IMG/VR virus record: IMGVR_UViG_3300045988_066757
Coordinates: 1-11,589 of that record
From: a virus
Length of the DNA: 11,589 nucleotides
Direction: 5' to 3' (one strand)
The notes beneath the pieces are model-generated. The model worked only from the letters and a program-made list of their open reading frames with translations, made no database searches and was not told the DNA's origin. Every line of letters starts with the position of its first letter. Positions within the stretch are counted from its first letter, which is position 1. The position numbers and the translations under genes were made by a program. Positions 1-11,589 of the stretch are shown piece after piece.

Positions 1-62
1 AAATATGCATAGCGACCTCTTTTTTAACATTTCCCAACACAGATTTAACACTAGCCAACACA

Positions 63-199
63 CTTTGGCACGCTTTTTGGTAGGTGCAATGCCACTCGAA
101 AGGCACGGCAGAAAAAATCTCTCTCGCCAACTTTGGCACGCTATTTGCATACCTCAAATGTTTTTGAAACTCGCCTTATTTGGCACGCTTTTTGCATAA
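63..199 (+). promoter_or_regulatory. Three direct copies of TTTGGCACGCTnTTTG(C/G); sigma-54 -24/-12-like elements or origin iterons (left ITR)
   Basis: TGGCAC-N5-TTGG at 66-80. TGGCAC-N5-TTGCA at 134-149 and at 181-196. Copies 2 and 3 extend to a 29-nt unit CTCGCC-N3-TTTGGCACGCTnTTTGCATA (123-151 and 170-198, 25/29 identical). All copies point inward, toward the 97-aa gene. Confidence 0.5.
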
Positions 200-242
200 A
201 GAAAAAAGATTTTTTATTTTAAGATTTATTAGTACAAAAAAA

Positions 243-274
243 TTTGCTATCACTCGTAAAAGTGTCTATCTTTG
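243..274 (+). promoter_or_regulatory. Bacteroidota-type housekeeping promoter (-33 TTTG / -7 TAnnTTTG) for the ITR gene
   Basis: TTTG at 243-246, a 20-nt spacer, then TATCTTTG at 267-274. This lies about 40 nt upstream of the ATG at 314, followed by an A-rich leader with no Shine-Dalgarno sequence. Confidence 0.6.
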
Positions 275-313
275 CACTATCAAATTAAAACAACAATTTA
301 AACAACAAACAAA

Positions 314-607
314 ATGAAGAAATCTTTTTTACGCGAAACGTCAAGATTACTAGCACAAACAAATGATAATCTAAGTTACGCGATTTCAGAGTTACGTGGT
401 AATGATACGTCTTTGCTTAAAGATATTCACGAAACATTAGAAAACATCGATGTTCTACTGCGATGTGAAGCAGATGGACGTGAAGCCCTAGAAATCGCTC
501 ACAAAAAAGAAATGTGGTTAAAAAATCAAGCATATTTTTTCATTCTTGACAGCGGTAATCTAGACGCTTTTCGAGAATATATTAAAGAGAACCCGAAAGA
601 ATTTTAA
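314..607 (+). CDS. Hypothetical 97-aa protein encoded inside the ITR (left copy); predicted mostly helical, function unknown
   Basis: ATG-initiated ORF with its own promoter and a downstream terminator. An identical copy lies at 10983-11276 (-). I recognise no motif. Confidence 0.8.
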   Translation: MKKSFLRETSRLLAQTNDNLSYAISELRGNDTSLLKDIHETLENIDVLLRCEADGREALEIAHKKEMWLKNQAYFFILDSGNLDAFREYIKENPKEF

Positions 608-613
608 TAAAAT

Positions 614-650
614 AACCGAAACGTAAAATTTTACGCTTCGGTTTTATTTT
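614..650. terminator. Bidirectional rho-independent terminator between convergent genes
   Basis: Stem AACCGAAACGTA (614-625) pairs with TACGCTTCGGTT (632-643) with one mismatch. It is followed by TTTTATTTT on the plus strand and by a T-rich run on the minus strand. It sits between the stop of the 97-aa gene (607) and the stop of the amidase gene (649). Confidence 0.7.
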
Positions 651-1053
651 AATTCAGTGGTAACAAACAAATTTTATTGAATGCTTCAATATCTTTTGCC
701 TTAAAGTTTGGGCAACTTTTATATTTGTTATAAGTGCAATGCCTTGTAACTTTTTTAATATCATATTGAGATATTAAGAAGTTACACACGTGCGCCAAAG
801 ATTCAATAACTTTTGCGGTCGGTTCTCTGCCGATGTAGGCAATACCTATGCTATTAGCGTTATGTCCTTTGCAGTGAGCACCTATTTCTATAATATTGCG
901 CCCTTTGTACCACTTGCCGTTAATATCAACTAAGAAGTGGTAGCCTATATCTCGCCACTTATTTACATTTACGTGGCACTTTCGTATTGCTTGCACGGTC
1001 GTGTTTGTCGGTGTATCGGTGCAATGTAAAATAATTTCGTTTATTTTTCGCAT
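649..1053 (-). CDS. N-acetylmuramoyl-L-alanine amidase endolysin (Amidase_2 / T7 lysozyme / PGRP fold)
   Basis: Blocks IILHCTDT, IGYHFLVD, GAHCKGHNANSIGIAYIG and RHC...KSCPNF match the zinc-ligand and catalytic blocks of T7-lysozyme-type amidases (His, His, Cys). It is the last gene of the late module. Confidence 0.9.
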   Translation of the reverse strand: MRKINEIILHCTDTPTNTTVQAIRKCHVNVNKWRDIGYHFLVDINGKWYKGRNIIEIGAHCKGHNANSIGIAYIGREPTAKVIESLAHVCNFLISQYDIKKVTRHCTYNKYKSCPNFKAKDIEAFNKICLLPLN

Positions 1054-1064
1054 AGTTTTAAAAT

Positions 1065-2657
1065 TTAAATTACATAAACACCACTATTAAGCAAATTATA
1101 AATTTGTTTTTGTTCTTCCTCAAGCATATTATGGGTGCTAATAATATCTACTGCATCAACCGAAACAAAACCCTTCAAATCGCCTAATACGCTGCGTTTG
1201 CTTTCATTGTTTCTAATATCGGATTTGCTTACATAAGAAGTAGCGTATAAATAAGGCTCTATTCCGTATAATGCGAAATCGTTCCAACTATCGCTACCTA
1301 CCTGCCTAATATCTTGTGATAGAGTTCTGTATATAACGTCTAAAGACGGTGTTATCTGCTCTACTTGGAAGACACTTCCATCACACGATAATTTTGCAAC
1401 TCCTTTACCTGTTATTATATTCACAACGTATTGTAGGTTTATTTCCTTGCCAACATATTCTTCGCTTAAAGAAACAAAACCTTTGAACGGTAGGAATATT
1501 TTAAAGTCGCTGGCATAGTCGGTTATATCCTTGTTTGGTGCCGGTACGGTAATACTACCATAGTCAAGCGTTATATTTTCAACCCCCGGAGTTTTTACAT
1601 TTATACCAGTATTATAGTTCCCTAATGATAGGGTACTTTCGCCGCTTTCGGTTATATCCGTGTATATCCTTTTAATGCTGCTTACATATTCGCCTATATC
1701 GATTGCCGTTCCCGTGCTTTGTATAAATCTTTGTTTCGCTAATTTGTCTAACGCAGCATCATTTACTATATAGACATTGATAGACCCGTATTTACCACCA
1801 ACGGGCGGCGTTGTGTCAGGCTTTGCACTTCCTGTAAGGTAATAATTACCTGAATTAGGGTCATTCACACCCTCATTCATTAACCACGAAAATACAGCCT
1901 TTTTATTTCCGTCCTGTAATGTGCTTTCAACTTCGTAATTGTCAAATGAAGATTCAAACGTAATTTTAGGTTTGCTTTCATTGTCGAATATATATTCAGT
2001 ATTAGCCGTTAGTGATATTGTTACTGGTTCTTTATCCTTGTAACGCTCTTTCAAGTTTTCAACGATACAATTTTCCGTTTGATTTTTTATTTTATACGAA
2101 CGTTCATAAGTTCCCGTTAACGTGATAGGGTAATCAAAATCAGCGTCATTTATAGTTATTTTAGCGTAGTGAGGTTGTGTCCCACTTATAACCATATTTA
2201 CAGATTTATCTAAATTGCCCTTATCTTTATAAGTCGCTTTAGCGTCAAAAAACCAATAGCCCACATTATCACCCGTAACGGTAATCTCTACTTGACTATC
2301 ATTTATAGTGTGTGATTCTGTCGTATCGGCAATTTCATTGTTTACCGTAACTTTCGGTACGGGTGTTCCCTCCTCGCTTTCGCCGTTTATAACTATATCG
2401 GGATAATCTTCGGGTGATAATTCAAGCCACGAAGAAACAGCCGTGTTTCCGTCTTCTGAAATTGTTAAATTATCTGTTTTTTCGTCACCCCATGTATAGT
2501 CATTATATACTAACGTGGGTTGCGGTTCTTTCTTTATAACCGTTCCTGTATTTGCTTTTACGGTAAATTGGTATTTACTTAAAAAACTACCCCCTTTCTT
2601 TTCTTCAAAAGTTACGGTTGTGTTAGGAATGTTATTTGTAAATTTAAAGTTTGCCAT
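1065..2657 (-). CDS. Tail structural protein, 530 aa; putative tail knob / receptor-binding protein
   Basis: Large beta-rich ORF downstream of the capsid gene. The start overlaps the upstream stop (TAATG at 2655-2659). The N-terminal half contains an internal duplication (DGNTAVSSWLEL versus DGNKKAVFSWLMN with similar flanks). The C-terminal half (FLPFKGFVSLSEEYVGKEINLQY ... FVSVDAVDII...EEQKQIYNLLNSGVYVI) reminds me of the C-terminal parts of phi29 gp9-type tail knob proteins; this is from memory and unverified. Confidence 0.8.
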   Translation of the reverse strand: MANFKFTNNIPNTTVTFEEKKGGSFLSKYQFTVKANTGTVIKKEPQPTLVYNDYTWGDEKTDNLTISEDGNTAVSSWLELSPEDYPDIVINGESEEGTPVPKVTVNNEIADTTESHTINDSQVEITVTGDNVGYWFFDAKATYKDKGNLDKSVNMVISGTQPHYAKITINDADFDYPITLTGTYERSYKIKNQTENCIVENLKERYKDKEPVTISLTANTEYIFDNESKPKITFESSFDNYEVESTLQDGNKKAVFSWLMNEGVNDPNSGNYYLTGSAKPDTTPPVGGKYGSINVYIVNDAALDKLAKQRFIQSTGTAIDIGEYVSSIKRIYTDITESGESTLSLGNYNTGINVKTPGVENITLDYGSITVPAPNKDITDYASDFKIFLPFKGFVSLSEEYVGKEINLQYVVNIITGKGVAKLSCDGSVFQVEQITPSLDVIYRTLSQDIRQVGSDSWNDFALYGIEPYLYATSYVSKSDIRNNESKRSVLGDLKGFVSVDAVDIISTHNMLEEEQKQIYNLLNSGVYVI

Positions 2658-3142
2658 TACTTATTACCTTTTATAGTTATCATTATCATTGTGCCTGTAT
2701 CATTCAATAGACCCATATTCGGAAACGGTACTTTTTCAAAGTGCGGCGTTCTTGAATATATGCTTTGCCTTGTGGATATGTATTTATCGGGGTCGTCAGA
2801 CAACACAACATGTCCCGTGGTCCTCAATATATCAGTTTCATACGTTTTTAGCACGTCCACAGATAGAAAAATTTCATAAGTAGAATTCCCTATAAATTTA
2901 ACGCTATCCACGAAATAAAAGCGTTGTAAACTATCTATTTTGCAGTAGTTGAATGTTGGTGCTGCTTGTAGTCTGACAAGCAAAACGGGGTGTAAAACGT
3001 CAAATGTTTTCCATAAAGTACAATCTAAATCAGTTGGCGAAGAAAGATTTTTATTTATTACTTTAGAATCTCCGTTATAGTTGTAAAAATGTATTGTTTC
3101 CATATCTGTATAAAATTTAAAGGGTAGGTAGTTATTAACCAC
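2657..3142 (-). CDS. Tail structural protein, 161 aa or shorter; possible tail-knob N-terminal-domain homolog
   Basis: ORF directly after the capsid gene and translationally coupled to the 530-aa gene. The segment RFYFVDSVKFIGNSTYEIFLSVDVLKTYETDI resembles the N-terminal signature of gp9-type tail knob proteins as I remember it. The listed start at 3142 is GTG and lies inside a hairpin. The first ATG is at 3103 (METIHF...), so the start is uncertain. Confidence 0.7.
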   Translation of the reverse strand: MVNNYLPFKFYTDMETIHFYNYNGDSKVINKNLSSPTDLDCTLWKTFDVLHPVLLVRLQAAPTFNYCKIDSLQRFYFVDSVKFIGNSTYEIFLSVDVLKTYETDILRTTGHVVLSDDPDKYISTRQSIYSRTPHFEKVPFPNMGLLNDTGTMIMITIKGNK

Positions 3143-3148
3143 CTACCC
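3122..3148 (-). terminator. Candidate attenuator/terminator hairpin after the capsid gene
   Basis: GGGTAGGT (3122-3129) pairs with ACCTACCC (3141-3148) around an 11-nt loop. In minus-strand sense it is followed by TTTAAATTTTAT. It lies 33 nt downstream of the capsid stop and overlaps the GTG at 3142. Confidence 0.3.
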
Positions 3149-3180
3149 ATTCACAAAACAACAATTTTAATAACCCAAAT

Positions 3181-4353
3181 TTAGGCTACAAAGAACACAA
3201 CAAAGTTTTCGTTGGTGTCGTTAAAATAACCTGCGTCAAACTTATAGTAATTATTGAAAAACTCTGCTTTTGCATTGTAGTTCGTTGTTACTCTTCGGTC
3301 GATGTTGCACACCCCGAGAGCGTCGCGGTCAAACATCACACCAAGAACGCCACTAATATCTACGTTTTGCCCGCTCGTCTCCTTGATGTTAATGTGTGCC
3401 GTACTTGCGAACTCGTAGTTTTTACCGCTACCTTGCCAAAACGGAATTGTTTCTGCATTCGGCAAGAGTACTTGGTCTTTGTTGTAGCTATCCGCGTATA
3501 GGTAAGTTCTTGCGGCTTTCTCGAAGTCAGACAAAAGAACAACGTGCAAATTGTCTTTAGGTGTGAAACGTGGCTTACCTCCTACGTTAAACGCACTTGA
3601 AATTGACGCCAAACGGTCGCTATACAAACCGATTGTATATGAAGCGAATTTAATGAAATCGGGGTCGGTTAGTGCTTTGTCAGCGGTAATAGTTGCGCCC
3701 TTTTGGTCGTTGTACAACTTTAGTAGGTTCACACAACGAGCGGTAGACCCTTTAGTATAATCCGTACCCTTGGCACCAGCAAAAGCGGCAGAATCTGCAA
3801 TGAGAGTTTCAGCAATCATGTTGTTGATGGTTCGCATAATTAACGCGTCTGTCTTAATTGTGATAGACTTTTCTACCGCATTATAAATCATTGAGTAGAA
3901 AGCGTTAAGTTGTTCAGAGTTACTGAAAGATTCTTTCACCTGTCGTTCTGTAATAGAAACGGCTACTTCAAAAGTAACTTTTGAATTAAAGAATTTTGCA
4001 GTAACAACGGGCTTATGGAATACATCCTGCGAATATGTTTGCCCGTCTGTCAATTCCCAACTTTTGTTTTCTTCGGCTTCGGGAATATCGGCATTTATCT
4101 TTTCGAGAACGCTGCCGAACTCCCAACTATCCATGAGAACGGAAGGAATTTTACCACTATAAGGGCGGTTAACAAATACCACTTTGCCGATGTGGTTAAC
4201 CAAAGATTTAACGTAATTGTCTACCGCATTTTGGTTAAACACTTCTTTACCCAAATCGACCAAACCAGTTAAATCTTCGGTTACAAGGTCTGTGTTACCT
4301 AGAACTTCTTTAGTTACGCTGTTAAGTAGTTCGTAAATTTGATTTACTTGCAT
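3181..4353 (-). CDS. Major capsid protein (HK97-fold type, phi29 gp8-like core without an Ig-like C-terminal domain)
   Basis: A 390-aa ORF in the canonical portal - scaffold - capsid position with its own strong promoter. Blocks such as DNYVKSLVNHIGKVVFVNR and QLNAFYSMIYNAVEKSI are reminiscent of podoviral capsid proteins (from memory). Confidence 0.75.
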   Translation of the reverse strand: MQVNQIYELLNSVTKEVLGNTDLVTEDLTGLVDLGKEVFNQNAVDNYVKSLVNHIGKVVFVNRPYSGKIPSVLMDSWEFGSVLEKINADIPEAEENKSWELTDGQTYSQDVFHKPVVTAKFFNSKVTFEVAVSITERQVKESFSNSEQLNAFYSMIYNAVEKSITIKTDALIMRTINNMIAETLIADSAAFAGAKGTDYTKGSTARCVNLLKLYNDQKGATITADKALTDPDFIKFASYTIGLYSDRLASISSAFNVGGKPRFTPKDNLHVVLLSDFEKAARTYLYADSYNKDQVLLPNAETIPFWQGSGKNYEFASTAHINIKETSGQNVDISGVLGVMFDRDALGVCNIDRRVTTNYNAKAEFFNNYYKFDAGYFNDTNENFVVFFVA

Positions 4354-4364
4354 AATATAATATT

Positions 4365-4934
4365 TTAGTAAATTGATTTTGTTATCTCATTTATAATTGC
4401 AAAGATAATATTTTCGCGCCAGTTTTTCAAACTAAATTGAATTTCTTTTTGTAGTTCGTCCGTGGCTGATTTTCCATTTAACCCCGTCACTACTTCGGTT
4501 ACTTCGGTTTTGTTCGTTCGCGTTTTGTCGCTTGTGTTATTGTCTTTGTCGTATTCCTCAAAAGTCGTAGTATTAAACGGCTTATTTGATGATACGTTTG
4601 TGTTAATGTTGTTCTCGCTCTCTGTAGCGTTATTTGTTTTTGTAGTGGTTTTATTCGTAGGTTTTAGCACGTTATACGTGGTATTGTACGCATCAGCCAC
4701 TTTTACCCAATTCGGGAGCATTAAGGCAATAACATTTTTAGCGTAGTTGTTTGCGTTTTCGCTTGTTATGGTGTTTAATACTTCTTTTTCTCCGTATTTC
4801 AAAAGTACTAAAGTATCAAGCCCTACACTATCCAATTCACCGAAAATTTTTGTGTATTGGTCGGGGTAATTCGCTTTGAATACCTTTGTAAATAACCCGT
4901 TTTGTGGGTCGGGGTATAACTCAATTATTTTCAT
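4365..4934 (-). CDS. Hypothetical 189-aa protein in the scaffold / head-tail adaptor position
   Basis: ATG ORF between the portal and capsid genes that overlaps the portal stop by 14 nt. It has a central N/T/K-rich low-complexity linker and helical ends. The function is inferred from position only. Confidence 0.75.
   Translation of the reverse strand: MKIIELYPDPQNGLFTKVFKANYPDQYTKIFGELDSVGLDTLVLLKYGEKEVLNTITSENANNYAKNVIALMLPNWVKVADAYNTTYNVLKPTNKTTTKTNNATESENNINTNVSSNKPFNTTTFEEYDKDNNTSDKTRTNKTEVTEVVTGLNGKSATDELQKEIQFSLKNWRENIIFAIINEITKSIY
4400..4431 (-). promoter_or_regulatory. Bacteroidota-type promoter for the capsid gene, embedded in the 3' end of the upstream gene
   Basis: Minus-strand sense: TTTG (4431-4428), a 20-nt spacer, TATCTTTG (4407-4400), then about 45 nt to the capsid ATG at 4353. 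The octamer and spacing are the same as in the ITR promoter. Confidence 0.6.
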
Positions 4935-5958
4935 TTTCTTTTCTTTTTTCTTCGTTCTTTTCTTCGTCTGTTTCTGTTTCTGTTTCTGTTTCCGTTTCTG
5001 TTTCTGTTTCTGTTTCTGTTTCCGTTTCTGTTTCCGTTTCTGTTTCCGTTTCGGTGTCGTTTACTTCTTTTTCTTGTTCACTAGCATTTTGTTCGTTTTC
5101 TGTTTCTGTTTCGTTTTTACGTATTGCCCAACTGCTACCCAATTCAACGCTAATTTCAGTACCAAACATTTCGTTTATTTTGTCTACTGCCTTTTTACGT
5201 TCTTGTAGCATATTATCTACGTATGGGTTCAAAGCGTCTACGTTCATTTGCACCTCGGATGTGTTAAGCCGTTCGCGCTTTAAATTGTAGTTTGCATTTA
5301 AGCCTATTTCATTAAACGCGCTAGCTTTGAAATACTGCAAAAGTTCTATTAACTGCCCTATTTGGTTTGCGCTTTGTGTGTTAATGCTTTGCAGATTTAC
5401 ACCCTTAAAAAATGCGTTTTCGCCAATTACGGAGAAATCCCCGTTTAAAATACGCGTTATAAATTCGTCCGCGCTTTGCTTTGTTTTATCATCGCTCGCA
5501 CTGATTAGCATTGTAATACGAGAGAGCACCGAGCACGTATTTAACGATAAAAGCGTATCAGAGCACAAAACCCCATATTTGCCGAAAATCGGTAAAAGAC
5601 TATTTGCGCCACTATCATTTTTTATAAGAATGCCATCTATACCTATTTTGTAGGTTTTATTTAAATTTAAATAGGGATTCGCCACTACGTATTCGGTTGG
5701 GTTGTTGTACACATCAGGAGTGCCACCCAAACCGCCCGTAAAAGCATACATTTTGCCGTCTACCTCTGTTACAAAAACGTTGCCGTTTGTCTGTAAAAGT
5801 CTTTCAAGTTCGTTTTGTGGCAAAGTATCGGGCAAACCTTTGTACACAAACATTGCTTGAGTTATAGCCAACATTTTGCGAATGTAGCTATTTACGCTTT
5901 TATCTTTGCCTTTTATTTCTTCTTGATATTTTAGGTAATAATTATCCTTCTTTGCCAT
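4921..5958 (-). CDS. Head-tail connector / portal protein (phi29 gp10 upper-collar type) with a long acidic repeat tail
   Basis: A 345-aa ORF. Blocks LPDTLPQNELERLL, GGTPDVYNNPTEYVVANP, NYNLKRERLNTSEV and RKKAVDKINEMFG line up with my memory of gp10-type connectors. It is located upstream of the scaffold-position and capsid genes. The C-terminal ~70 aa are acidic low complexity. Confidence 0.8.
   Translation of the reverse strand: MAKKDNYYLKYQEEIKGKDKSVNSYIRKMLAITQAMFVYKGLPDTLPQNELERLLQTNGNVFVTEVDGKMYAFTGGLGGTPDVYNNPTEYVVANPYLNLNKTYKIGIDGILIKNDSGANSLLPIFGKYGVLCSDTLLSLNTCSVLSRITMLISASDDKTKQSADEFITRILNGDFSVIGENAFFKGVNLQSINTQSANQIGQLIELLQYFKASAFNEIGLNANYNLKRERLNTSEVQMNVDALNPYVDNMLQERKKAVDKINEMFGTEISVELGSSWAIRKNETETENEQNASEQEKEVNDTETETETETETETETETETETETETETETDEEKNEEKRKENENN
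4969..5055. repeat. Hexanucleotide tandem repeat (YGTTTC)x14.5 encoding (TE)14T in the portal C-terminus
   Basis: Fourteen and a half consecutive TGTTTC/CGTTTC units on the plus strand. They are in frame on the minus strand as alternating Thr (ACA/ACG) and Glu (GAA). A shorter ETETE stretch is encoded at about 5098-5115. Confidence 0.95.
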
Positions 5959-6145
5959 AGATGTTTTTTATTAAATTTGTTAACTCTGAAAGTACCTTTG
6001 TATTTTCTTCTAAGGTACCCCGTAAATGTTCCGTTTCTTCTGCGTGCTTTGTGTCTTGCTTTGCCATGTAATAGAAAACAAGTAAACACATACCAATTGG
6101 AAAACCTACGTTTGAAATAAGTTGGGTTAATTCTGTAATATCCAT
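5942..6145 (-). CDS. Small single-pass membrane protein, YvrJ-like; possible holin
   Basis: MDITELTQLISNVGFPIGMCLLVFYYMAKQD followed by a charged helical tail. The NxGFPI motif plus a hydrophobic helix resembles the YvrJ family (from memory). The track starts the ORF at a GTG (6172), but the predicted -7 box ends at 6175, so the ATG at 6145 is the more likely start. It overlaps the portal start by 17 nt. Confidence 0.6.
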   Translation of the reverse strand: MDITELTQLISNVGFPIGMCLLVFYYMAKQDTKHAEETEHLRGTLEENTKVLSELTNLIKNIYGKEG

Positions 6146-6174
6146 ATTTGGAAATTTAAAAGTTAATAACACTA

Positions 6175-6206
6175 CAAAGATAACGTATTTATTTCACACT
6201 CACAAT
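6175..6206 (-). promoter_or_regulatory. Bacteroidota-type promoter upstream of the small membrane protein and portal genes
   Basis: Minus-strand sense: ATTG (6206-6203), a 20-nt spacer, then TATCTTTG (6182-6175). The -7 octamer and spacing match the ITR and capsid promoters; the -33 box is one mismatch from TTTG. Confidence 0.5.
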
Positions 6207-7301
6207 GTTAGAACGTGCTGAAGTCATTAAATAATTTCGTACAATTTCCCCAACTTCGTTATTTTGATAAAATACCTTGTCAGTGGCGAAATATCTTGTT
6301 ACTTGTGACTCAATGTAAGTAGCTGTACTTATTAGTTTTCGCTTGTAGTTCGGTTTTCCGTTCATTTCTAGCGAATATATTAAAGCGTTATCGTCTTTTA
6401 TTGGTGTGGTTTTGATGTGGATGTATGTAAAATTTTCGTTTCCTTTTTGTATGATGTTTCCTTGTAAAATTACTTCGTTAAACACAATGTAATAGACAAA
6501 TAAAACATCTTTAGGGGTGTATTTTGTTGGCAAATGTGGATAGGCAGCCAATTCCCATTTACCGCCCGTAATCATCTGTAAATTTTGATTATCGAAACAG
6601 AAATATTTATTACTTGCTTTCTGCTTTACAATCGTACTACAATATTCGACCGCTACCACCGCGCCACCTTGACCGAACTTGTAAATGTCTATCGTTCCTT
6701 GCTCCATGTTGGTTACTTGCTTTAGACCCATTTCGGAAAAGTAGGGGCAATATTTATTTATAGTATTACCGAGCATAAACACCTTTACATTATCCCTTTG
6801 TCGTATTATGGTGCTAAGTAAGTTCATAAATAACATAAATTCATCGGGTAAATAGTACCTACGTGTGAGAAATTCGTCAAAGATTATTGTAGTAACATTC
6901 GGATAACTGCTACTTTTTTCGTGCTCTTGTTCTGACAGACAAAAACCATAACAAAACGGGGTAGTTTGTGGGTAATACTTTTTCTTTTCTGAATCGTACT
7001 TAGCAAGATACCATTTTCCCGAAATGTAAAAGATTGTGTTAAATTCTCCGTTCGTTAACTTTGTTATTTCATCATTCGCAACATGATTTGCAAAAAGGTT
7101 TTCGGCTCTCTTACCGCGTAAATCTTCGCGCCACCTACGGATATATGCCATTTGTTCACCCGTTGAGACATACCTCTTTAAACCATACAAAAGGGCTGCA
7201 TAGGTTTTGCCGTTGGAACGCTCTCCAAATATAATATTATAGTCTGCTTTTTTATTTAGTATCTTTGTGAGCGAATAAAATTTATTTTTTTCTTGTTTCA
7301 T
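6189..7301 (-). CDS. DNA encapsidation (packaging) ATPase, phi29 gp16 type
   Basis: Walker A is FGERSNGKTYA and the Walker B-like block is YPNVTTIIFDEF. Blocks GEQMAYIRRWREDL and RDNVKVFMLGNTINKYCPYF follow the order I remember for gp16-family ATPases. There is no separate small terminase. Confidence 0.9.
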   Translation of the reverse strand: MKQEKNKFYSLTKILNKKADYNIIFGERSNGKTYAALLYGLKRYVSTGEQMAYIRRWREDLRGKRAENLFANHVANDEITKLTNGEFNTIFYISGKWYLAKYDSEKKKYYPQTTPFCYGFCLSEQEHEKSSSYPNVTTIIFDEFLTRRYYLPDEFMLFMNLLSTIIRQRDNVKVFMLGNTINKYCPYFSEMGLKQVTNMEQGTIDIYKFGQGGAVVAVEYCSTIVKQKASNKYFCFDNQNLQMITGGKWELAAYPHLPTKYTPKDVLFVYYIVFNEVILQGNIIQKGNENFTYIHIKTTPIKDDNALIYSLEMNGKPNYKRKLISTATYIESQVTRYFATDKVFYQNNEVGEIVRNYLMTSARSNIVSVK

Positions 7302-7305
7302 TTCT

Positions 7306-7339
7306 GTTTTGTTTTAAGTGTTCCACGTGGAACGGGTTA
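7306..7339 (-). promoter_or_regulatory. Conserved upstream element, copy 1, containing the perfect palindrome GTTCCACGTGGAAC (7320-7333)
   Basis: Minus-strand sense: TAACCCGTTCCACG-TG-GAACACTTAAAACAAAAC, ending 4 nt before the ATPase ATG. It shares two identical 14-nt blocks with 10943-10977. Confidence 0.5.
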
Positions 7340-7341
7340 AT

Positions 7342-9528
7342 TTAATCTTTTAATTTTATACCTCTCAAATAGTTTAAATACATAATACTTAGTGATAGGT
7401 TGTAATTCGTTGGCTCGAGATGAACACCGCTATTTTCAACAAAGTTACTTTTATTTCCTAAATAGTCGGTAATTACTCCTTGTATTTTATAATCTATGTA
7501 TGTGTGTATGTTTTTGCCCGTGGCTTCGTTTGGAATTTCTAGGTAATTAGTGAAAGCGTTAAAAATGTCGTCCCCGTACTTTTTAACTAGGTAGGGAATG
7601 GCGGTTTTTTTATTTACCCCACTAATTGTAAGGCTATATTTATAACTTTGCCCGTCTACCTTTAGTGCGTTTTCTTCTTCTACCATGTAGCGTTTTGCTC
7701 CCAATGTTTTAAAGTGTGTGTAAACACCCTCAAAATCCCACACACCGAGCACCTTTGTAACTCCTTTAATAGTTTCGGGTTCGCACTTTTCAAAAGAAAT
7801 ATTGTGATATTTACATGCTGCTTTCAATTTGTTATATACTACATTGTTGTATGTGTCAAAATACTTTTTGTGCTTATCAGCGTTTTTTAGTTTTATGCTA
7901 TCCGTATCGCTGTAAATGTAATCATCTTTCGCTTCATAAATAGCGGTGAATAAATTTCTCCTAGCGTAAGCCGTAACGAAAACCCCCCACGGATAGAACA
8001 AAAATCGGTTTTTGCTATCATTGTATTTTTGTAACATTTCCGCTTTTTCTCTATCGGTTAACGTGTTAGTATCCCATTTGCCGTTATATGTAAATTCGTC
8101 ACGGAGTGGGTTTGTAACACACATTCCATAGCAAGAATTAAGCATTTCTTTACTATTCAAATATTCTACTTCTTTCCCTTGCACGCCCTTTAATTTGGTT
8201 TTGCTTTCGTATAGGTCTAGAATGGTATTTATAAATTCGGTGGGCAAATAATCTGCTTTGTAAATGTACATTGTGCCAATTCTGATTTTACCCCACTTGT
8301 AGAACATTTTTATAACGTTGTAATCTATATTTGTTAAGGTGGTGCAAATCTTTTCAGCACACACCACACGCCCGTTGTTTTCTACTACTTCTTTTTTCAA
8401 AAAGCACTTACTTACGCTTATTGGATTATCTTGCAATTCACTTGCAAAAATATCGGTAAATTCTACGTCAAAAATGCAAAGGTAGTTTTTTATATAGTAC
8501 TCAAATTCTCGCATATTTCGGGGGTTTACTTTTACGCCCTTACTCATTGGGAATTTTTCAGATATCATAACATATGGGTAGCTGCTTGTAAAATCGTAGC
8601 TAGATATGTTTGTACAAATTTTGTCCACGTGGTTTGCATTCGCATGTGTGAACCCACCACTAAAAGCACGTTGCAACATGTTAAATTCATGTAGCCCGTT
8701 TATGTTTAGAGAGTGAATTAAATTTATACATTCCCAATTACGAATACTTTTGCCGTTTATATTCTTTTGGAGCATATTTTTACGGCAATGTTTACGTACA
8801 AAACCCGTTTTAGTGAGTGGTAGCCGTGTAATGAATTTGTATTGTTCTAGTTGTTCCTGTATGTAGTTCATAACCACGCGAATATCGTTCACACAGTACA
8901 TCAATTCTTTTGTGCTTAGTGGTGTTTTTGAGTGTCTTAAAAGTGTGTAGTCTAAATCTCCAACTAATTTAGCGCACTTGTACTTCTGTAGTTGTTCCCC
9001 CAATTTGGCAAGGTTGTAACCGCTTAACAAGTAACTACAACGAAACTCTATACCGTCTTTTGTTATTGCGTAAATGGGTTTTCTTAAATCAATACTAAAA
9101 ACTTTTTCCCACTCAAACAAAGTGCGTATAAATTGAAATTCGTATGATAAATTGTGAATGTAAATTATTATTCTTTTATCTTTATTTAGGCTTAATTTGC
9201 GGACTATTACAGAGCACATTTTTATAAACTCATCCCACGTACGACCTACAATTATATACCCGTTTATTCCGAATTGCCACACGTACATAGTACTACACTT
9301 TTCCAATTTTGTACCTAGTTTTGCGTATTGTTCGTAGTTGTACGTGCTGCCATCCTTACCACGATAAAAAGATGTTGTTTCAATATCGAATGCGCATGGG
9401 ATGTTATAGAATTTAGTTCCCTTGTTATTGCCTATTACATTTTTATCATTTACAGCATTATCTAGTACTTCTTCTATGTCTGTAGAATTGTAAATATTAT
9501 TTCGTTGTTCATATTGAATTTTTTTCAT
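7342..9528 (-). CDS. Protein-primed family-B DNA polymerase
   Basis: ExoI is AFDIETTS, ExoII is IHNLSYEFQF and ExoIII is YCVNDIRV. Motif A is SYDFTSSYP (Dx2SLYP), motif B is KEMLNSCYG (Kx3NSxYG), motif C is YSDTDS, and the KxY motif is GAKRY. At 728 aa there is room for TPR1/TPR2-type insertions. Confidence 0.95.
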   Translation of the reverse strand: MKKIQYEQRNNIYNSTDIEEVLDNAVNDKNVIGNNKGTKFYNIPCAFDIETTSFYRGKDGSTYNYEQYAKLGTKLEKCSTMYVWQFGINGYIIVGRTWDEFIKMCSVIVRKLSLNKDKRIIIYIHNLSYEFQFIRTLFEWEKVFSIDLRKPIYAITKDGIEFRCSYLLSGYNLAKLGEQLQKYKCAKLVGDLDYTLLRHSKTPLSTKELMYCVNDIRVVMNYIQEQLEQYKFITRLPLTKTGFVRKHCRKNMLQKNINGKSIRNWECINLIHSLNINGLHEFNMLQRAFSGGFTHANANHVDKICTNISSYDFTSSYPYVMISEKFPMSKGVKVNPRNMREFEYYIKNYLCIFDVEFTDIFASELQDNPISVSKCFLKKEVVENNGRVVCAEKICTTLTNIDYNVIKMFYKWGKIRIGTMYIYKADYLPTEFINTILDLYESKTKLKGVQGKEVEYLNSKEMLNSCYGMCVTNPLRDEFTYNGKWDTNTLTDREKAEMLQKYNDSKNRFLFYPWGVFVTAYARRNLFTAIYEAKDDYIYSDTDSIKLKNADKHKKYFDTYNNVVYNKLKAACKYHNISFEKCEPETIKGVTKVLGVWDFEGVYTHFKTLGAKRYMVEEENALKVDGQSYKYSLTISGVNKKTAIPYLVKKYGDDIFNAFTNYLEIPNEATGKNIHTYIDYKIQGVITDYLGNKSNFVENSGVHLEPTNYNLSLSIMYLNYLRGIKLKD

Positions 9529-10172
9529 AAGCCGAATTTACCTAACGCACTTAGTAGGTCATTTACTAGTCCTTTTATTTCGTTTTCTGCTTTGTTAACT
9601 GTTTCGTTAGCCTTGTTTTCTATATCCCGTTGTAACGCGTTTTCAAGGCTTACCGCATCGCTTTCTATTTGGCTACTAACATCTGCCGCTTCGCTCTCTA
9701 ATTCACCGGTAAAATCTTTGTAGCGCATTAAATACTTTTCTACAAAATCGCTATCGGAAATACTTTGCAACTTGTCGTTAATCTTATCCGACATCAAATT
9801 AAATTCTTCGTCGGTAAGCTCGTACGCTCTTTTTATATGTTCATTATATTGCAGAGTGCCTCTAGCAGTGCTTGTTGGTTGCCTTAAAAAGGCTATTGCT
9901 TTCGCGTATTCACGTTTTAATTCTTCCCAAGATAATTCACCTACTGCAAACTTACTGAATCCATCTATATTGCCTCTATTTAATGCCTTAACCGCGGGGC
10001 TTAAAAGTCCTGCGCTTTCTATGTTTTCTATTCGTCTGTTTGCTTGATGAAAAACCCTCCTTATTTCTTTACGTAGTTCGGGGTTACTTTCAGTGGCTGA
10101 AATAATTTCTTTTTTTAGTTTTTCCCTTTCTGTGGATGAGAAAACAGATTTAGTGAATGCAATTTTTGGCAT
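9525..10172 (-). CDS. Candidate terminal protein (priming protein), 215 aa
   Basis: Lies immediately upstream of the protein-primed polymerase and overlaps it (ATGA at 9525-9528), as TP genes do in phi29-like phages. It has a basic helical N-terminal part and a Ser/Asp/Glu-rich C-terminal part. The function is inferred from position and composition only. Confidence 0.75.
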   Translation of the reverse strand: MPKIAFTKSVFSSTEREKLKKEIISATESNPELRKEIRRVFHQANRRIENIESAGLLSPAVKALNRGNIDGFSKFAVGELSWEELKREYAKAIAFLRQPTSTARGTLQYNEHIKRAYELTDEEFNLMSDKINDKLQSISDSDFVEKYLMRYKDFTGELESEAADVSSQIESDAVSLENALQRDIENKANETVNKAENEIKGLVNDLLSALGKFGL

Positions 10173-10178
10173 AGTATT

Positions 10179-10210
10179 AAAATTAAAAGGGAGGGAGAAA
10201 ACCCCCTCCC
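10179..10210 (-). terminator. Rho-independent terminator (minus strand) after the 117-aa gene
   Basis: Minus-strand sense: GGGAGGG (10210-10204), loop GGTTTTCT, CCCTCCC (10195-10189), then TTTTAATTTT. The GC-only stem stands out in an AT-rich genome, and there is no T-run on the plus strand. Confidence 0.7.
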
Positions 10211-10218
10211 GATGTTAT

Positions 10219-10572
10219 TTACTTATCTTTGAAAGTGATTGTGTAACAATCTTTACCGTGGCTCTCGTACTTTCGTACGATAAAACCTACTTTAGACATA
10301 CGGATAGCTTCTACGGCTTCCGCGTCTTTTACAATGTCGTTAAATACCTTTGTAAGGTTTAAAGGCATGTCTACGCGCTTTTTAAAGGACTTCATTACAA
10401 CTACCACCTTAACGCCAAATTTACCGCGCGTAAAGTAAAAGCCATCTAAAGAATGTACCTTATTTCCGTCTTGGTTGTACAACTCTTTAAGAGTGGTAAA
10501 GGTGTATCCGTCAAAATTGAAAATGAATGGGTTCTCGTTTCCCGGGTTGTACTTTTGTGAAAAACTTGTCAT
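10219..10572 (-). CDS. Hypothetical 117-aa early protein; candidate single-stranded DNA-binding protein
   Basis: ATG ORF in the replication module, upstream of the TP and polymerase genes and followed by a strong terminator. Its beta-rich pattern and size are reminiscent of phi29 p5-type SSBs (weak, from memory). Confidence 0.8.
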   Translation of the reverse strand: MTSFSQKYNPGNENPFIFNFDGYTFTTLKELYNQDGNKVHSLDGFYFTRGKFGVKVVVVMKSFKKRVDMPLNLTKVFNDIVKDAEAVEAIRMSKVGFIVRKYESHGKDCYTITFKDK

Positions 10573-10583
10573 AACTTAAATTT

Positions 10584-10757
10584 TTATTTAATATTGGTGA
10601 TGTGTTCATTACCTAGTGAAATAAGGTAATTTCTAAACTTAGAGATTTTAAGAAGTGTGCGAGTATTCGCACTTACTTCGGGGGTAGTCATAAGTTGACC
10701 GAGTGACGCGCAAGCGGTAAAAATTGCGTCATCAAATTGGTTTTGTTCGTTGTTCAT
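10584..10757 (-). CDS. Small hypothetical protein, 57 aa (absent from the supplied ORF track)
   Basis: Hand translation: MNNEQNQFDDAIFTACASLGQLMTTPEVSANTRTLLKISKFRNYLISLGNEHITNIK, stop TAA at 10584-10586. Its ATG overlaps the TGA of the upstream 61-aa gene (ATGA at 10754-10757). It fills an otherwise empty 180-nt gap in a tightly packed genome. Confidence 0.5.
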   Translation of the reverse strand: MNNEQNQFDDAIFTACASLGQLMTTPEVSANTRTLLKISKFRNYLISLGNEHITNIK

Positions 10758-10939
10758 TTCTTAGGGTATTTGAATAAATTAGTGTGTTTAATAAAAGTGG
10801 TGTCTGTTGTTACTATGGTCGCTTTGCCGTTTATTTCTGTATCGTGATACATCTTGCACGAAGTTACACAAAACAAAGCACACAAAAGACAAAAGTACAA
10901 AATAGTACCTGCTAAGCACTTTAAAAATGTTTTTTTCAT
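10754..10939 (-). CDS. Small predicted lipoprotein / secreted membrane-anchored peptide, 61 aa
   Basis: N-terminus MKKTFLKCLAGTILYFCLLCALFCVTSC has a basic start, a hydrophobic core and a Ser-Cys lipobox-like end. The mature part would be about 33 aa. It is the first gene after the right ITR. Confidence 0.7.
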   Translation of the reverse strand: MKKTFLKCLAGTILYFCLLCALFCVTSCKMYHDTEINGKATIVTTDTTFIKHTNLFKYPKK

Positions 10940-10942
10940 TAC

Positions 10943-10977
10943 GTTTTGTTTTAAGTATTCAAACGTGGAACGGGTTA
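10943..10977 (-). promoter_or_regulatory. Conserved upstream element, copy 2, straddling the inner ITR boundary
   Basis: Minus-strand sense: TAACCCGTTCCACG-TTT-GAATACTTAAAACAAAAC, ending 3 nt before the ATG at 10939. The 14-nt blocks GTTTTGTTTTAAGT and CGTGGAACGGGTTA (plus strand) are identical to those in copy 1. Confidence 0.5.
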
Positions 10978-10982
10978 TTTTA

Positions 10983-11276
10983 TTAAAATTCTTTCGGGTT
11001 CTCTTTAATATATTCTCGAAAAGCGTCTAGATTACCGCTGTCAAGAATGAAAAAATATGCTTGATTTTTTAACCACATTTCTTTTTTGTGAGCGATTTCT
11101 AGGGCTTCACGTCCATCTGCTTCACATCGCAGTAGAACATCGATGTTTTCTAATGTTTCGTGAATATCTTTAAGCAAAGACGTATCATTACCACGTAACT
11201 CTGAAATCGCGTAACTTAGATTATCATTTGTTTGTGCTAGTAATCTTGACGTTTCGCGTAAAAAAGATTTCTTCAT
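10983..11276 (-). CDS. Hypothetical 97-aa protein encoded inside the ITR (right copy)
   Basis: Identical translation to 314-607 (+). Unlike the left copy, no terminator follows it before the downstream genes. Confidence 0.8.
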   Translation of the reverse strand: MKKSFLRETSRLLAQTNDNLSYAISELRGNDTSLLKDIHETLENIDVLLRCEADGREALEIAHKKEMWLKNQAYFFILDSGNLDAFREYIKENPKEF

Positions 11277-11315
11277 TTTGTTTGTTGTTTAAATTGTTGT
11301 TTTAATTTGATAGTG

Positions 11316-11347
11316 CAAAGATAGACACTTTTACGAGTGATAGCAAA
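11316..11347 (-). promoter_or_regulatory. Bacteroidota-type promoter (right ITR copy); likely the main rightmost promoter of the minus-strand gene array
   Basis: Mirror image of 243-274 (TTTG, 20 nt, TATCTTTG). Confidence 0.6.
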
Positions 11348-11390
11348 TTTTTTTGTACTAATAAATCTTAAAATAAAAAATCTTTTTTCT

Positions 11391-11527
11391 TTATGCAAAA
11401 AGCGTGCCAAATAAGGCGAGTTTCAAAAACATTTGAGGTATGCAAATAGCGTGCCAAAGTTGGCGAGAGAGATTTTTTCTGCCGTGCCTTTCGAGTGGCA
11501 TTGCACCTACCAAAAAGCGTGCCAAAG
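11391..11527 (-). promoter_or_regulatory. Three sigma-54 -24/-12-like / iteron motif copies (right ITR)
   Basis: Mirror image of 63-199. The individual elements lie at 11510-11524, 11441-11456 and 11394-11409, all pointing inward (leftward). Confidence 0.5.
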
Positions 11528-11589
11528 TGTGTTGGCTAGTGTTAAATCTGTGTTGGGAAATGTTAAAAAAGAGGTCGCTATGCATATTT

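Follow-up and report, generated by a model that had tools for sequence, protein, structure and literature searches.

The window, by which is meant the whole stretch of 11,589 nucleotides analysed here, is an 11.6-kb genome (35.8% GC) from a human gut metagenome, and it poses the question of which phage group a genome of this size belongs to and for which bacterial host it is equipped. Read jointly, the results make it quite likely that the window holds, in full, the linear genome of a virulent podovirus of the phi29 type: an Astrithrvirus-like new species, adapted to Bacteroidota, replicated by protein priming and carrying an expanded, gene-containing inverted terminal repeat (ITR).

The closest isolates to the window, and fully syntenic with it, are Astrithrvirus and its relatives: phages astrithr, Astrid and assan of Salmonella, DU_PP_III of Pectobacterium, Phanie of Acinetobacter, K58 g2 of Vibrio and Entb_47 of Enterobacter (hosts of the group: Salmonella, Pectobacterium, Acinetobacter, Vibrio, Enterobacter and Shigella). 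The 14 distinct genes of the window (15 with the ITR copy; coding density 92%; stop codons TAA in 11 and TGA in three) and the elements between them were placed as follows:

314-607, plus strand (second copy at 10983-11276, minus strand): ITR ORF, 97 aa, predicted helical hairpin.
609-648: palindromic hairpin, bidirectional terminator-like, separating the left ITR ORF from the amidase gene.
649-1053, minus strand: endolysin, N-acetylmuramoyl-L-alanine amidase of the T7-lysozyme type (Amidase_2, E 1e-16).
1065-2657, minus strand: tail protein, 530 aa, counterpart of Astrid ORF010, tail-knob C-part (24-27% identity to Astrid/Phanie; synteny; text of PMC11476376).
2657-3103, minus strand: N-part of the tail knob, 148 aa when started at the ATG at 3103 (Astrid ORF009, 32% identity; Phanie annotation; gene call).
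3181-4353, minus strand: major capsid protein, MCP (Phi29_MCP, E 2.5e-52).
4365-4934, minus strand: 189-aa protein in the lower-collar position, putative counterpart of Astrid ORF007 by synteny.
4921-5958, minus strand: upper collar or connector (Phage_connector gp10, E 3e-16).
5942-6145, minus strand: holin-like membrane protein of 67 aa, counted from the ATG at 6145 (phrog_4898 and gene call).
6189-7301, minus strand: gp16-type DNA packaging ATPase (Podovirus_Gp16, E 2e-22).
7302-7341, minus strand: leader element, palindrome GTTCCACGTGGAAC then ACTTAAAACAAAAC, with a diverged copy upstream of p61 (10940-10982).
7342-9528, minus strand: protein-primed family B DNA polymerase, pPolB (DNA_pol_B_2, PF03175, E 2e-11; phrog_1907, E 5e-74).
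9525-10172, minus strand: terminal protein (TP) candidate by position, 215 aa, all-alpha, overlapping the polymerase start.
10189-10210, minus strand: terminator-like element between the TP gene and p117, a GC-rich hairpin with a T run behind it.
10219-10939, minus strand: three small early genes, p117, p57 and p61, the last with a signal peptide and a lipobox-like sequence.

The sequence-only reading had credited the window with the full protein-primed podovirus toolkit in about 15 genes. Most of that toolkit was matched (pPolB, gp16 ATPase, gp10 connector, capsid, tail, holin and amidase), with every score of the gp16 ATPase (PF05894), connector (PF05352) and MCP (PF25622) above the gathering score; the TP was placed by position. 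Exo I-III, motifs A, B and C and YxDTDS were legible in the polymerase translation, and the connector ends in an acidic (TE)n tail that arises from a hexanucleotide repeat at 4967-5052. The TP candidate was named from its position and its homology to the same-position ORF of Astrid: identity with the same-position ORFs of Astrid, Phanie and K58 was 33-40% over part of the length. It had no family match, and its AF2 model, all-alpha (pLDDT 73), had no PDB match by Foldseek. The AF2 model of the ITR ORF was helical and gave no significant Foldseek match against the PDB; a weak match to CT398, a sigma-54-binding coiled-coil protein, had a Foldseek probability of 0.12 and was treated as noise. In relatives, homologs of the ITR ORF occupy the first or second gene position from one end.

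Judged from this gene set and from phi29, replication would most likely start from both ends by protein priming with TP and pPolB, and the terminal AAA would be compatible with sliding-back. Packaging would be driven by the gp16-type ATPase, moving DNA through the gp10 connector into the Phi29_MCP capsid. A search of the entire window for pRNA yielded nothing in Rfam at E <= 1, and a tRNA scan was likewise empty. A pRNA-like transcript from the sigma-54-type boxes described below was also considered and was dropped, because folding of the ITR RNA was not significant in either orientation (z -1.1 and -1.7).

The expression signals were assessed together with uncultured gut relatives, the IMG/VR UViGs L001-L080 (probably also GenBank OP07xxxx 'Bacteriophage sp.' from faeces), which form one clade with the window and share its expression signals and terminal sigma-54-type boxes. 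Bacteroidota-type signals, with A-rich leaders and no Shine-Dalgarno (SD) sequence before any gene, had been proposed from the window, and the relatives strengthened that case far beyond the window alone. An SD core (GGAG, GAGG or AGGA) was found in the 15 nt before the start of 0/14 genes, and the leaders contain 49% A and 7% G. Across the window and L001-L086, SD sequences precede 0-4% of genes, against 38-77% in the isolates Astrid, DU_PP_III, Phanie, K58 and AD70P2 and 45-67% in the low-GC relatives (L087-92 and the Amedibacillus phage). In rough NJ trees, the window fell inside a monophyletic SD-less clade that adjoins proteobacterial and low-GC lineages.

The second signal is the -7 element TAnnTTTG, which is reportedly specific to the Bacteroidota primary sigma factor. 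The full motif TTTG-N18-22-TAnnTTTG occurs five times in the window (0.9 expected), and three coding-strand copies precede genes, namely both copies of the ITR ORF and the MCP gene. Additional -7 boxes were found upstream of the holin gene and, weakly, of the knob-N gene. The promoters were mapped as follows:

243-274, plus strand (mirror copy at 11316-11347, minus strand): Bacteroidota-type promoter of the ITR ORF, TTTG-N20-TATCTTTG, with the same layout at the ends of relatives.
4400-4431, minus strand: Bacteroidota-type promoter upstream of the MCP gene, retained in 15/15 close-clade members, the window among them, and in 65/68 of the ~44% GC clade.
6175-6182, minus strand: -7 box TATCTTTG, holin or late promoter, shared by 15/15 close-clade members, by 57/68 members of the 44% GC clade and by 3/3 among L084-86.

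Upstream of knob-N, the TAAATTTG box lies across the stop codon of the MCP gene, with a terminator-like hairpin after it; it was rated weak as a promoter because it is conserved in only 2/14 close relatives. The total of TAnnTTTG sites in the window (40 against 18.6 expected) was not used alone as evidence, since the excess is present on both strands, and a generic sigma-70 scan of the window gave a chance-level result (40 against 38.5 expected). The position of the boxes was more informative: they stand 30-70 nt upstream of the starts of the same genes in about 85 relatives, and 383 of them form a clade-wide peak from -70 to -31, against about five per 10-nt bin elsewhere. Between -65 and -20, TAnnTTTG was present for 15-37% of clade genes and for none in the same five isolates and L087-92; in the more distant MT836125 it was found 0.07 times per gene.

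Host sigma-A would be expected to recognise TTTG/TAnnTTTG promoters at both genome ends, ahead of the holin-connector block and ahead of the capsid gene, and translation would start on A-rich leaders that lack SD sequences. On the other side, no TAnnTTTG box was found in the window before the TP, polymerase and ATPase genes, and their transcription would be explained only by read-through from the right-ITR promoter across the hairpin at 10189-10210.

From these expression signals, Bacteroidota are the probable host, and the subclade may have been rewired for them. No published Bacteroidota host for this particular clade was found in the literature. The MCP search of the genome collection returned only whole-phage contigs, in metagenome-assembled genomes (MAGs) of Prevotella, Scatosoma, Gastranaerophilales and Staphylococcaceae; since these are whole phage genomes in bins from at least five unrelated taxa, binning is uninformative on the host, and MAG titles were rejected as host evidence. 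We consider it unlikely that the same phage lives in another gut host with few SD sequences, for example Gastranaerophilales (Melainabacteria). That reading draws on two contigs, L084 and L085, which were recovered from two separate Gastranaerophilales/Melainabacteria MAGs and have a GC content of about 37%, close to that of the window; they are, however, whole-phage contigs in bins, and other clade members were binned with Prevotella, Scatosoma and Staphylococcaceae. The holin-gene box, of a type said to be confined to the Bacteroidota sigma factor, is also present in all three of L084-86.

A Firmicute or Actinobacterium as host is less likely still. Such hosts were given for the more than 200 phi29-like gut vOTUs of the expanded Salasmaviridae (Shah et al., 2023), and phi29-like isolates come mostly from Gram-positive bacteria. 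The nearest isolates to the window, however, have Gram-negative hosts, and the window genes all lack the SD sequences that precede 45-67% of genes in L087-92 and the Amedibacillus phage. The endolysin, a T7-lysozyme-like amidase of a single domain, lacks a cell-wall-binding domain; amidases of this type are often found in phages with Gram-negative hosts, those of Bacteroides and Flavobacterium among them. Its best homologs are other small phage contigs; the named cellular matches at about 42% identity included both Muribaculaceae and Mariprofundaceae, and the phage matches at about 40% ranged over phages of Idiomarina, Bacteroides, Flavobacterium, Helicobacter and Microcystis. These homologs do not single out a host.

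The ends of the window consist of the following repeats:

1-617, plus strand: left ITR, beginning at the physical terminus (AAATATGCAT...), with 21-nt phased repeats at 23-62.
10973-11589, minus strand: right ITR, 100% identical to the left ITR.

The claim that the window is a complete phi29-type genome bounded exactly by ITRs was borne out by these arms, a perfect inverted match over 617 bp, and by the gene set. The ends were checked in other data. In the relative L010, an Illumina adapter is fused directly to AAATATGCAC, the same terminus as nucleotide 1 of the window, which marks the start as a physical DNA end. Logan contigs of run SRR3993060 matched the window with 100% identity at 588-4996 and 5023-11002, and both inner ITR junctions were recovered in this independent assembly. 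The two contigs end exactly 30 nt within the ITR, one on each side, one less than the Logan word length, which we take to be 31 bases; such a stop would fit a true repeat. ITRs among the relatives are mostly 45-350 bp long, with up to 1038 bp in L024, and L024 excepted, the ITR of the window is the longest that carries a gene; in L006, the ITR already takes in the promoter of the ITR ORF together with 16 of its codons. The 617-bp ITR may thus be an expanded form of the 45-350-bp ITRs, in which expansion would have engulfed the first early gene with its promoter and left the gene in two copies. That the 617-bp ITR and exact completeness are instead an assembly artefact, with a shorter true ITR and a single-copy ITR ORF, as the short ITRs of most relatives and the one-ended ORF of L103, L104 and L004 might suggest, is hardly credible given the inner junctions in the independent assembly of the same run, the contig stops 30 nt into the repeat, and the highly variable ITR length of the clade, from the long ITR of L024 to the partly extended one of L006. 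No contig longer than 11.6 kb is listed in the best 120 of 2113 TP clusters, and there is consequently no sign of a prophage.

The termini also carry a second kind of promoter-like element:

66-195, plus strand (mirror copies at 11395-11524, minus strand): three sigma-54-type boxes, all directed inward, TGGCACG-N4-TTGC.

The boxes at 134-148 and 181-195 match perfectly, that at 66-80 with a single mismatch; the six sites of the window compare with 0.49 expected. TGGCACG-N4-TTGCW boxes are conserved clade-wide at about 65 and 125 nt from both termini, with 172 perfect copies in 918 kb of clade sequence and none in 124 kb of outgroup sequence. Of 74 unique contexts, 73 have G at position 7 and 72 have W after TTGC, and eight spacer variants were seen; the clade has a -24/-12 consensus, TGGCACG-N4-TTGCW, with fixed spacing. 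In the ~44% GC clade, further boxes lie in a hairpin loop after the ATPase gene. Certain inner copies have TTGT or TTGG at -12, no more than about 65 nt separate the first box from the end of the DNA, a promoter of the sigma-A type comes next, ahead of the first gene, and no candidate for an enhancer-binding (AAA+) activator was seen among the 14 phage genes. Tentatively, and with some doubt, the terminal and ATPase-hairpin boxes could be real sites of the host sigma-54 RNA polymerase holoenzyme, the enzyme being a host factor at the genome ends. Possible roles would be conditional early transcription, a roadblock or insulator, or an aid to origin opening in protein-primed replication; for the last, adenovirus ITRs with their host factors NFI and Oct-1 offer an analogy. 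We know of no phage with such a sigma-54 arrangement at its termini, and the boxes are a previously unreported feature. They constitute a clade-conserved, putative regulatory or replication feature that is directly testable with a Bacteroides rpoN mutant.

To our knowledge, no phi29-type phage has been isolated on a Bacteroidota host. The clade is abundant in human gut data and, at only about 11 kb, would offer Bacteroides or Prevotella the smallest chassis of any tailed phage. It would also be a clean case of one minimal genome plan in three bacterial phyla with the expression signals swapped, and the comparison of relatives yields a concrete, testable promoter map.

Among known systems, phi29 (Salasmaviridae) has in common with the window the pPolB, gp16 ATPase, gp10 connector and Phi29_MCP families and a linear genome with terminal AAA, for which protein priming is inferred. 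It differs in its 19.3-kb genome, 6-bp ITR, pRNA dependence and Gram-positive host; identity between the window polymerase and that of one phi29-like Bacillus phage is only about 24%, and pRNA, a Salasmaviridae-only feature, was not detected in the window. A Bacteroidales host has been suggested for the phi29-like metagenomic genome Bacteriophage sp. isolate 2692_55609 (PMC11476376, a 2024 review). With 12,148 bp and 42.5% GC it is, like the window, a small phi29-like faecal genome with a two-gene tail knob. Its description in PMC11476376 sets it apart: it forms the separate singleton MCP cluster 30, and its MCP and polymerase are related to those of Amedibacillus phage AD70P2, whereas the window MCP is 31% identical to that of AD70P2 and 59% to that of Astrid.

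With the Astrithrvirus-type phages, the window shares a genome of 10.4-11.9 kb, ITRs and one gene order, in which the small early genes are followed by TP, pPolB, gp16 ATPase, a small membrane protein, the connector, a ~185-aa protein, MCP, knob-N, knob-C and the lysin. Identities are 56-59% for the MCP, 40-46% for the polymerase and 51-53% for the ATPase, and pRNA was found in neither. Contrary to the sequence-only reading, phi29-like phages of such a size are thus familiar and classified. By ICTV convention, a genus is delimited at about 70% nucleotide similarity over the genome. The window agrees with the genus Astrithrvirus in gene order and size and departs from it in nucleotide similarity: none was detected with the Astrithrvirus-type phages, and when the full window was compared by megablast with 50,697 phage records, nothing matched. 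Unlike the window, the isolates have gene-free ITRs of 74-208 bp, no sigma-54-type boxes and no CACGTG palindromes; their hosts are Gammaproteobacteria, and their genes come with SD sequences and sigma-70-type promoters and without TAnnTTTG boxes.

On sequence comparison, the window is a new species in a large Astrithrvirus-like cluster of 10-12-kb phages. The suggestion that its lineage may be undescribed was overturned by at least 269 matching IMG/VR contigs, by TP protein clusters (90% identity) numbering 2113, and by about 200 human-faeces genomes of 10.7-14.5 kb in Astrid's MCP cluster (Table S1, PMC11476376); Astrithrvirus-type phages are MCP cluster 23 in that review. L006, L002 and L005 show 86-87% (polymerase) and 87-89% (MCP) protein identity to the window and ~79% DNA identity over 76-88% of it. 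A separate amidase gene like that of the window was present in 0/98 fetched relatives, and other small contigs have one. L100, a contig from another sample, is 96.7% identical to the window and therefore belongs to the same species, and the same strain and species are present in runs SRR3993060 and SRR3993031, which, going by the record name LIUW16, probably come from the Prevotella-dominated Mongolian gut cohort PRJNA328899. Taken as a genome, the window adds one species to a cluster that had been catalogued before, that of Salmonella phage Astrid and its kin.

The genome is bounded by perfect inverted terminal repeats (ITRs), and all of its genes except the left ITR ORF copy are carried by the minus strand. 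Protein domains were assigned with Pfam and PHROGs, and the following features were located (+ or -, strand):

1-617 and 10973-11589: perfect ITRs, 617 bp
23-62: tandem 21-nt units (TTTAACA...CCCAACAC) beside the terminus, keeping phase with the first sigma-54-type box
66-80, 134-148 and 181-195, +: inward-facing sigma-54-type boxes TGGCACG-N4-TTGC, mirrored at 11395-11524, -
314-607 and 10983-11276: ITR ORF, of a family also found in L004, L008, L017, L034, L084 and L103
649-1053, -: Amidase_2 endolysin
3181-4353, -: major capsid protein (MCP; Phi29_MCP)
4921-5958, -: gp10 connector
4967-5052: C-terminal acidic (TE)n tail of the connector, encoded by a hexanucleotide repeat (14 copies)
5942-6145, -: holin-like protein
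6189-7301, -: Podovirus_Gp16 ATPase
7342-9528, -: family B protein-primed polymerase
10754-10939, -: p61 gene (signal peptide, then lipobox-like ...VTSC)

The window holds 14 distinct genes at 92% coding density, all with ATG starts and with TAA (11) or TGA (three) as stops. Exo I-III and motifs A, B and C were readable in the polymerase translation. A tRNA scan of the window found none, and an Rfam search gave no match and hence no pRNA. The p61 homologs of the 44% GC clade (79 aa) retain a lipobox-like ...LQGC sequence and the motif GKATIVTTDTT; p61 may be a small early lipoprotein, perhaps with a role in superinfection exclusion.

The sequence-only reading of a complete, ITR-bounded phi29-type genome proved correct. 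Besides the perfect repeats, AAATATGCAC, identical to the terminus at window nt 1, is fused directly to Illumina adapter at both ends of the relative L010. This adapter (L010 1-49 and the other end) was left in the IMG/VR record and is contamination, yet it marks the physical end. Both inner ITR junctions are independently supported by Logan contigs of SRR3993060, which match window 588-4996 and 5023-11002 at 100%, stop exactly 30 nt into each ITR and show a further break in the hexanucleotide repeat. The Logan assembly word length is presumably 31 bases, and a stop at one base less would fit a true repeat. The connector repeat may be variable in length, since independent assemblies break there and the alignment with L100 (another sample of the same project, 96.7% identical to the window) is interrupted beside it, at window 4955-4967. 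In the best 120 of 2113 terminal protein (TP) clusters no listed contig was longer than 11.6 kb, so integration into a host genome left no sign.

The expression signals had been read as Bacteroidota-style, and this held. The absence of Shine-Dalgarno (SD) sequences, A-rich leaders and TAnnTTTG boxes are hallmarks of Bacteroidota gene expression. The 15 nt upstream of each gene start in the window contain no SD core, and the leaders contain 49% A and 7% G (37% and 19% for that strand overall). The full motif TTTG-N18-22-TAnnTTTG was found five times against 0.9 expected; three of the five lie upstream of coding-strand genes (the two ITR ORF copies and the MCP gene), and the holin gene has the -7 box with ATTG at -33. 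For these sequence signals, comparison with relatives is decisive. SD-bearing genes make up 0-4% in the window and its gut clade (L001-L086) versus 38-77% in the Amedibacillus phage and the gammaproteobacterial isolates Astrid, DU_PP_III, Phanie plus K58. Of the clade genes, 15-37% carry TAnnTTTG at -65 to -20, versus none in these five isolates and the low-GC lineages L087-L092; the value for MT836125, a more distant gut genome, is 0.07 per gene. The distribution of the box over 1022 gene starts has a sharp maximum at -70 to -31 (383 boxes, against about five per 10-nt bin elsewhere). The box precedes the holin gene in 15/15, 57/68 and 3/3 genomes and the MCP gene in 15/15 and 65/68, and it is kept before the TP gene in 55 of 57 genomes of the ~44% GC clade; gene-matched boxes were absent from every outgroup tested.

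The MAG bins that hold clade contigs contradict one another on host. The ~11-kb whole-phage contigs L081-L092 were placed in MAGs named Prevotella, Ca. Scatosoma, Gastranaerophilales, Melainabacteria, Staphylococcaceae, Tissierella and others; they are likely mis-binned, as was seen for Methanobrevibacter bins (PMC11476376). The amidase was considered as a host indicator and was uninformative. The run is assigned, by our assumption, to a Mongolian cohort. That cohort has been described as Prevotella-dominated (PMC9387673), and the sample appears to originate from it.

A separate amidase gene was missing from all 98 relatives fetched, and other small contigs encode amidases 53-95% identical to that of the window. 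Many fetched relatives carry instead a tail protein of greater length (617-739 aa), with no recognisable endolysin gene; L084 carries an opposite-strand 141-aa ORF, a candidate M15-type peptidase (observations from window 649-1053, L004, L008, L010, L017, L034 and L084).

The ITRs of relatives measure ~45-350 bp, with 1038 bp in L024, and that of L006 (353 bp) extends over the ITR ORF promoter and 16 codons of that ORF. Homologs of this ORF share the motif KNQAY-F; in the close clade of 15 genomes they occupy the TP-side end, but in the 44% GC clade and L084 they are found reversed at the lysin-side end. These opposite positions, with ITR lengths of ~45-1038 bp, imply frequent exchange between the two genome ends; in the window the whole gene is copied to both. 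A helical hairpin is predicted for the protein, with no informative structural match.

TGGCACG-N4-TTGCW is the textbook sigma-54 -24/-12 consensus. The window has six sites against 0.49 expected, and in a survey of both ends of L001-L084 the box was conserved, inward-facing, at distances of ~65 and 125 nt from each terminus throughout the clade without SD. Perfect boxes number 172 in 918 kb; of these, 154 face inward within 300 nt of an end, with typical distances to the terminus of ~62-66 and 120-135 nt. Among 74 unique contexts, 73 have G at position 7 and 72 have W after TTGC; the 4-nt spacer has eight variants. In L007 and L013 (ITR ~90 bp) the second box lies beyond the repeat on both sides with differing flanks, so the box itself is maintained. 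No box was found in 124 kb of outgroup sequence, and L087-L098, which comprise proteobacterial isolates, low-GC lineages, the Amedibacillus phage and MT836125, lack it. The 18 further boxes belong to the 44% GC clade, where they occupy, in either orientation, the loop of a hairpin that lies after the ATPase stop and before the holin promoter; this loop box, TGGCACGAAATTTGCA, lies at ~5100-5350 in L015, L022, L028, L033, L040 and L081, usually antisense and inverted in L033.

The boxes match a promoter consensus, but simple promoters are disfavoured: a sigma-A-type promoter stands between each box set and the first gene, no candidate sigma-54 activator was seen in the phage gene set, some inner copies have TTGT or TTGG at -12, and internal copies are mostly antisense to genes. 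The 21-nt phased repeats at the terminus run on into the boxes, and the combined series would fit binding by an origin protein. The segment TTTTTAACNTTTCCCAACRC is conserved from clade to clade, whereas the extreme termini differ (AAATATGCA versus AAAGGTACGC).

From these signals, the right ITR promoter (11347-11316) would transcribe the ITR ORF and, as the right side has no terminator, would read through into p61, p57 and p117. Upstream of the TP, polymerase and ATPase genes, none of which has its own TAnnTTTG box in the window, lies a GC-rich hairpin with a T run (10210-10189). Transcription of the holin, connector and lower collar genes would start from the holin promoter (-7 box 6182-6175), and that of the capsid gene from the MCP promoter (4431-4400); a hairpin (3148-3122) comes after the capsid gene. 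Knob, tail and amidase transcription would end at a bidirectional hairpin (609-648) that opposes the left ITR ORF copy. The ATPase and p61 genes share a ~35-nt leader segment, AACCCGTTCCACGTggaacACTTAAAACAAAAC (7302-7341 and 10940-10982, -). The palindrome TTCCACGTGGAA recurs in relatives, where each terminal region of the 44% GC clade has two copies, but none of the outgroups checked contains it; it may be the operator of a phage regulator.

The proposed uniqueness of the lineage did not survive. A nucleotide search against 50,697 phage records gave no match, and the closest IMG/VR relatives (L002, L005 and L006) show ~79% DNA identity across 76-88% of the window. At the protein level, Astrithrvirus-type isolates of 10.4-11.9 kb matched the MCP (56-59% identity) and polymerase (40-46%). 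Related MCPs occur on at least 269 IMG/VR contigs, and ~200 faecal genomes share MCP cluster 23 with Astrid (PMC11476376, Table S1). Rough NJ trees of MCP and polymerase placed the window inside a monophyletic gut clade that adjoins the proteobacterial isolates and some low-GC lineages having SD. The window is a new species within a known, heavily sampled cluster. In the literature searched, neither a Bacteroidota host for this clade nor the sigma-54-type terminal boxes were described; a Bacteroidales host has been proposed for another phi29-like genome (PMC11476376), and the expanded Salasmaviridae were given Firmicutes and Actinobacteria hosts (Shah et al., 2023).

The 189-aa, 148-aa and 530-aa proteins were named lower collar and two-gene tail knob after PMC11476376. 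The knob proteins (148 and 530 aa) are 24-32% identical to their Astrid counterparts; the 189-aa protein had no match in Astrid and was assigned by position and size only. Read on the minus strand, the window has the gene order of Astrid, and at the place equivalent to the terminal boxes Astrid has only a sigma-70-like promoter.
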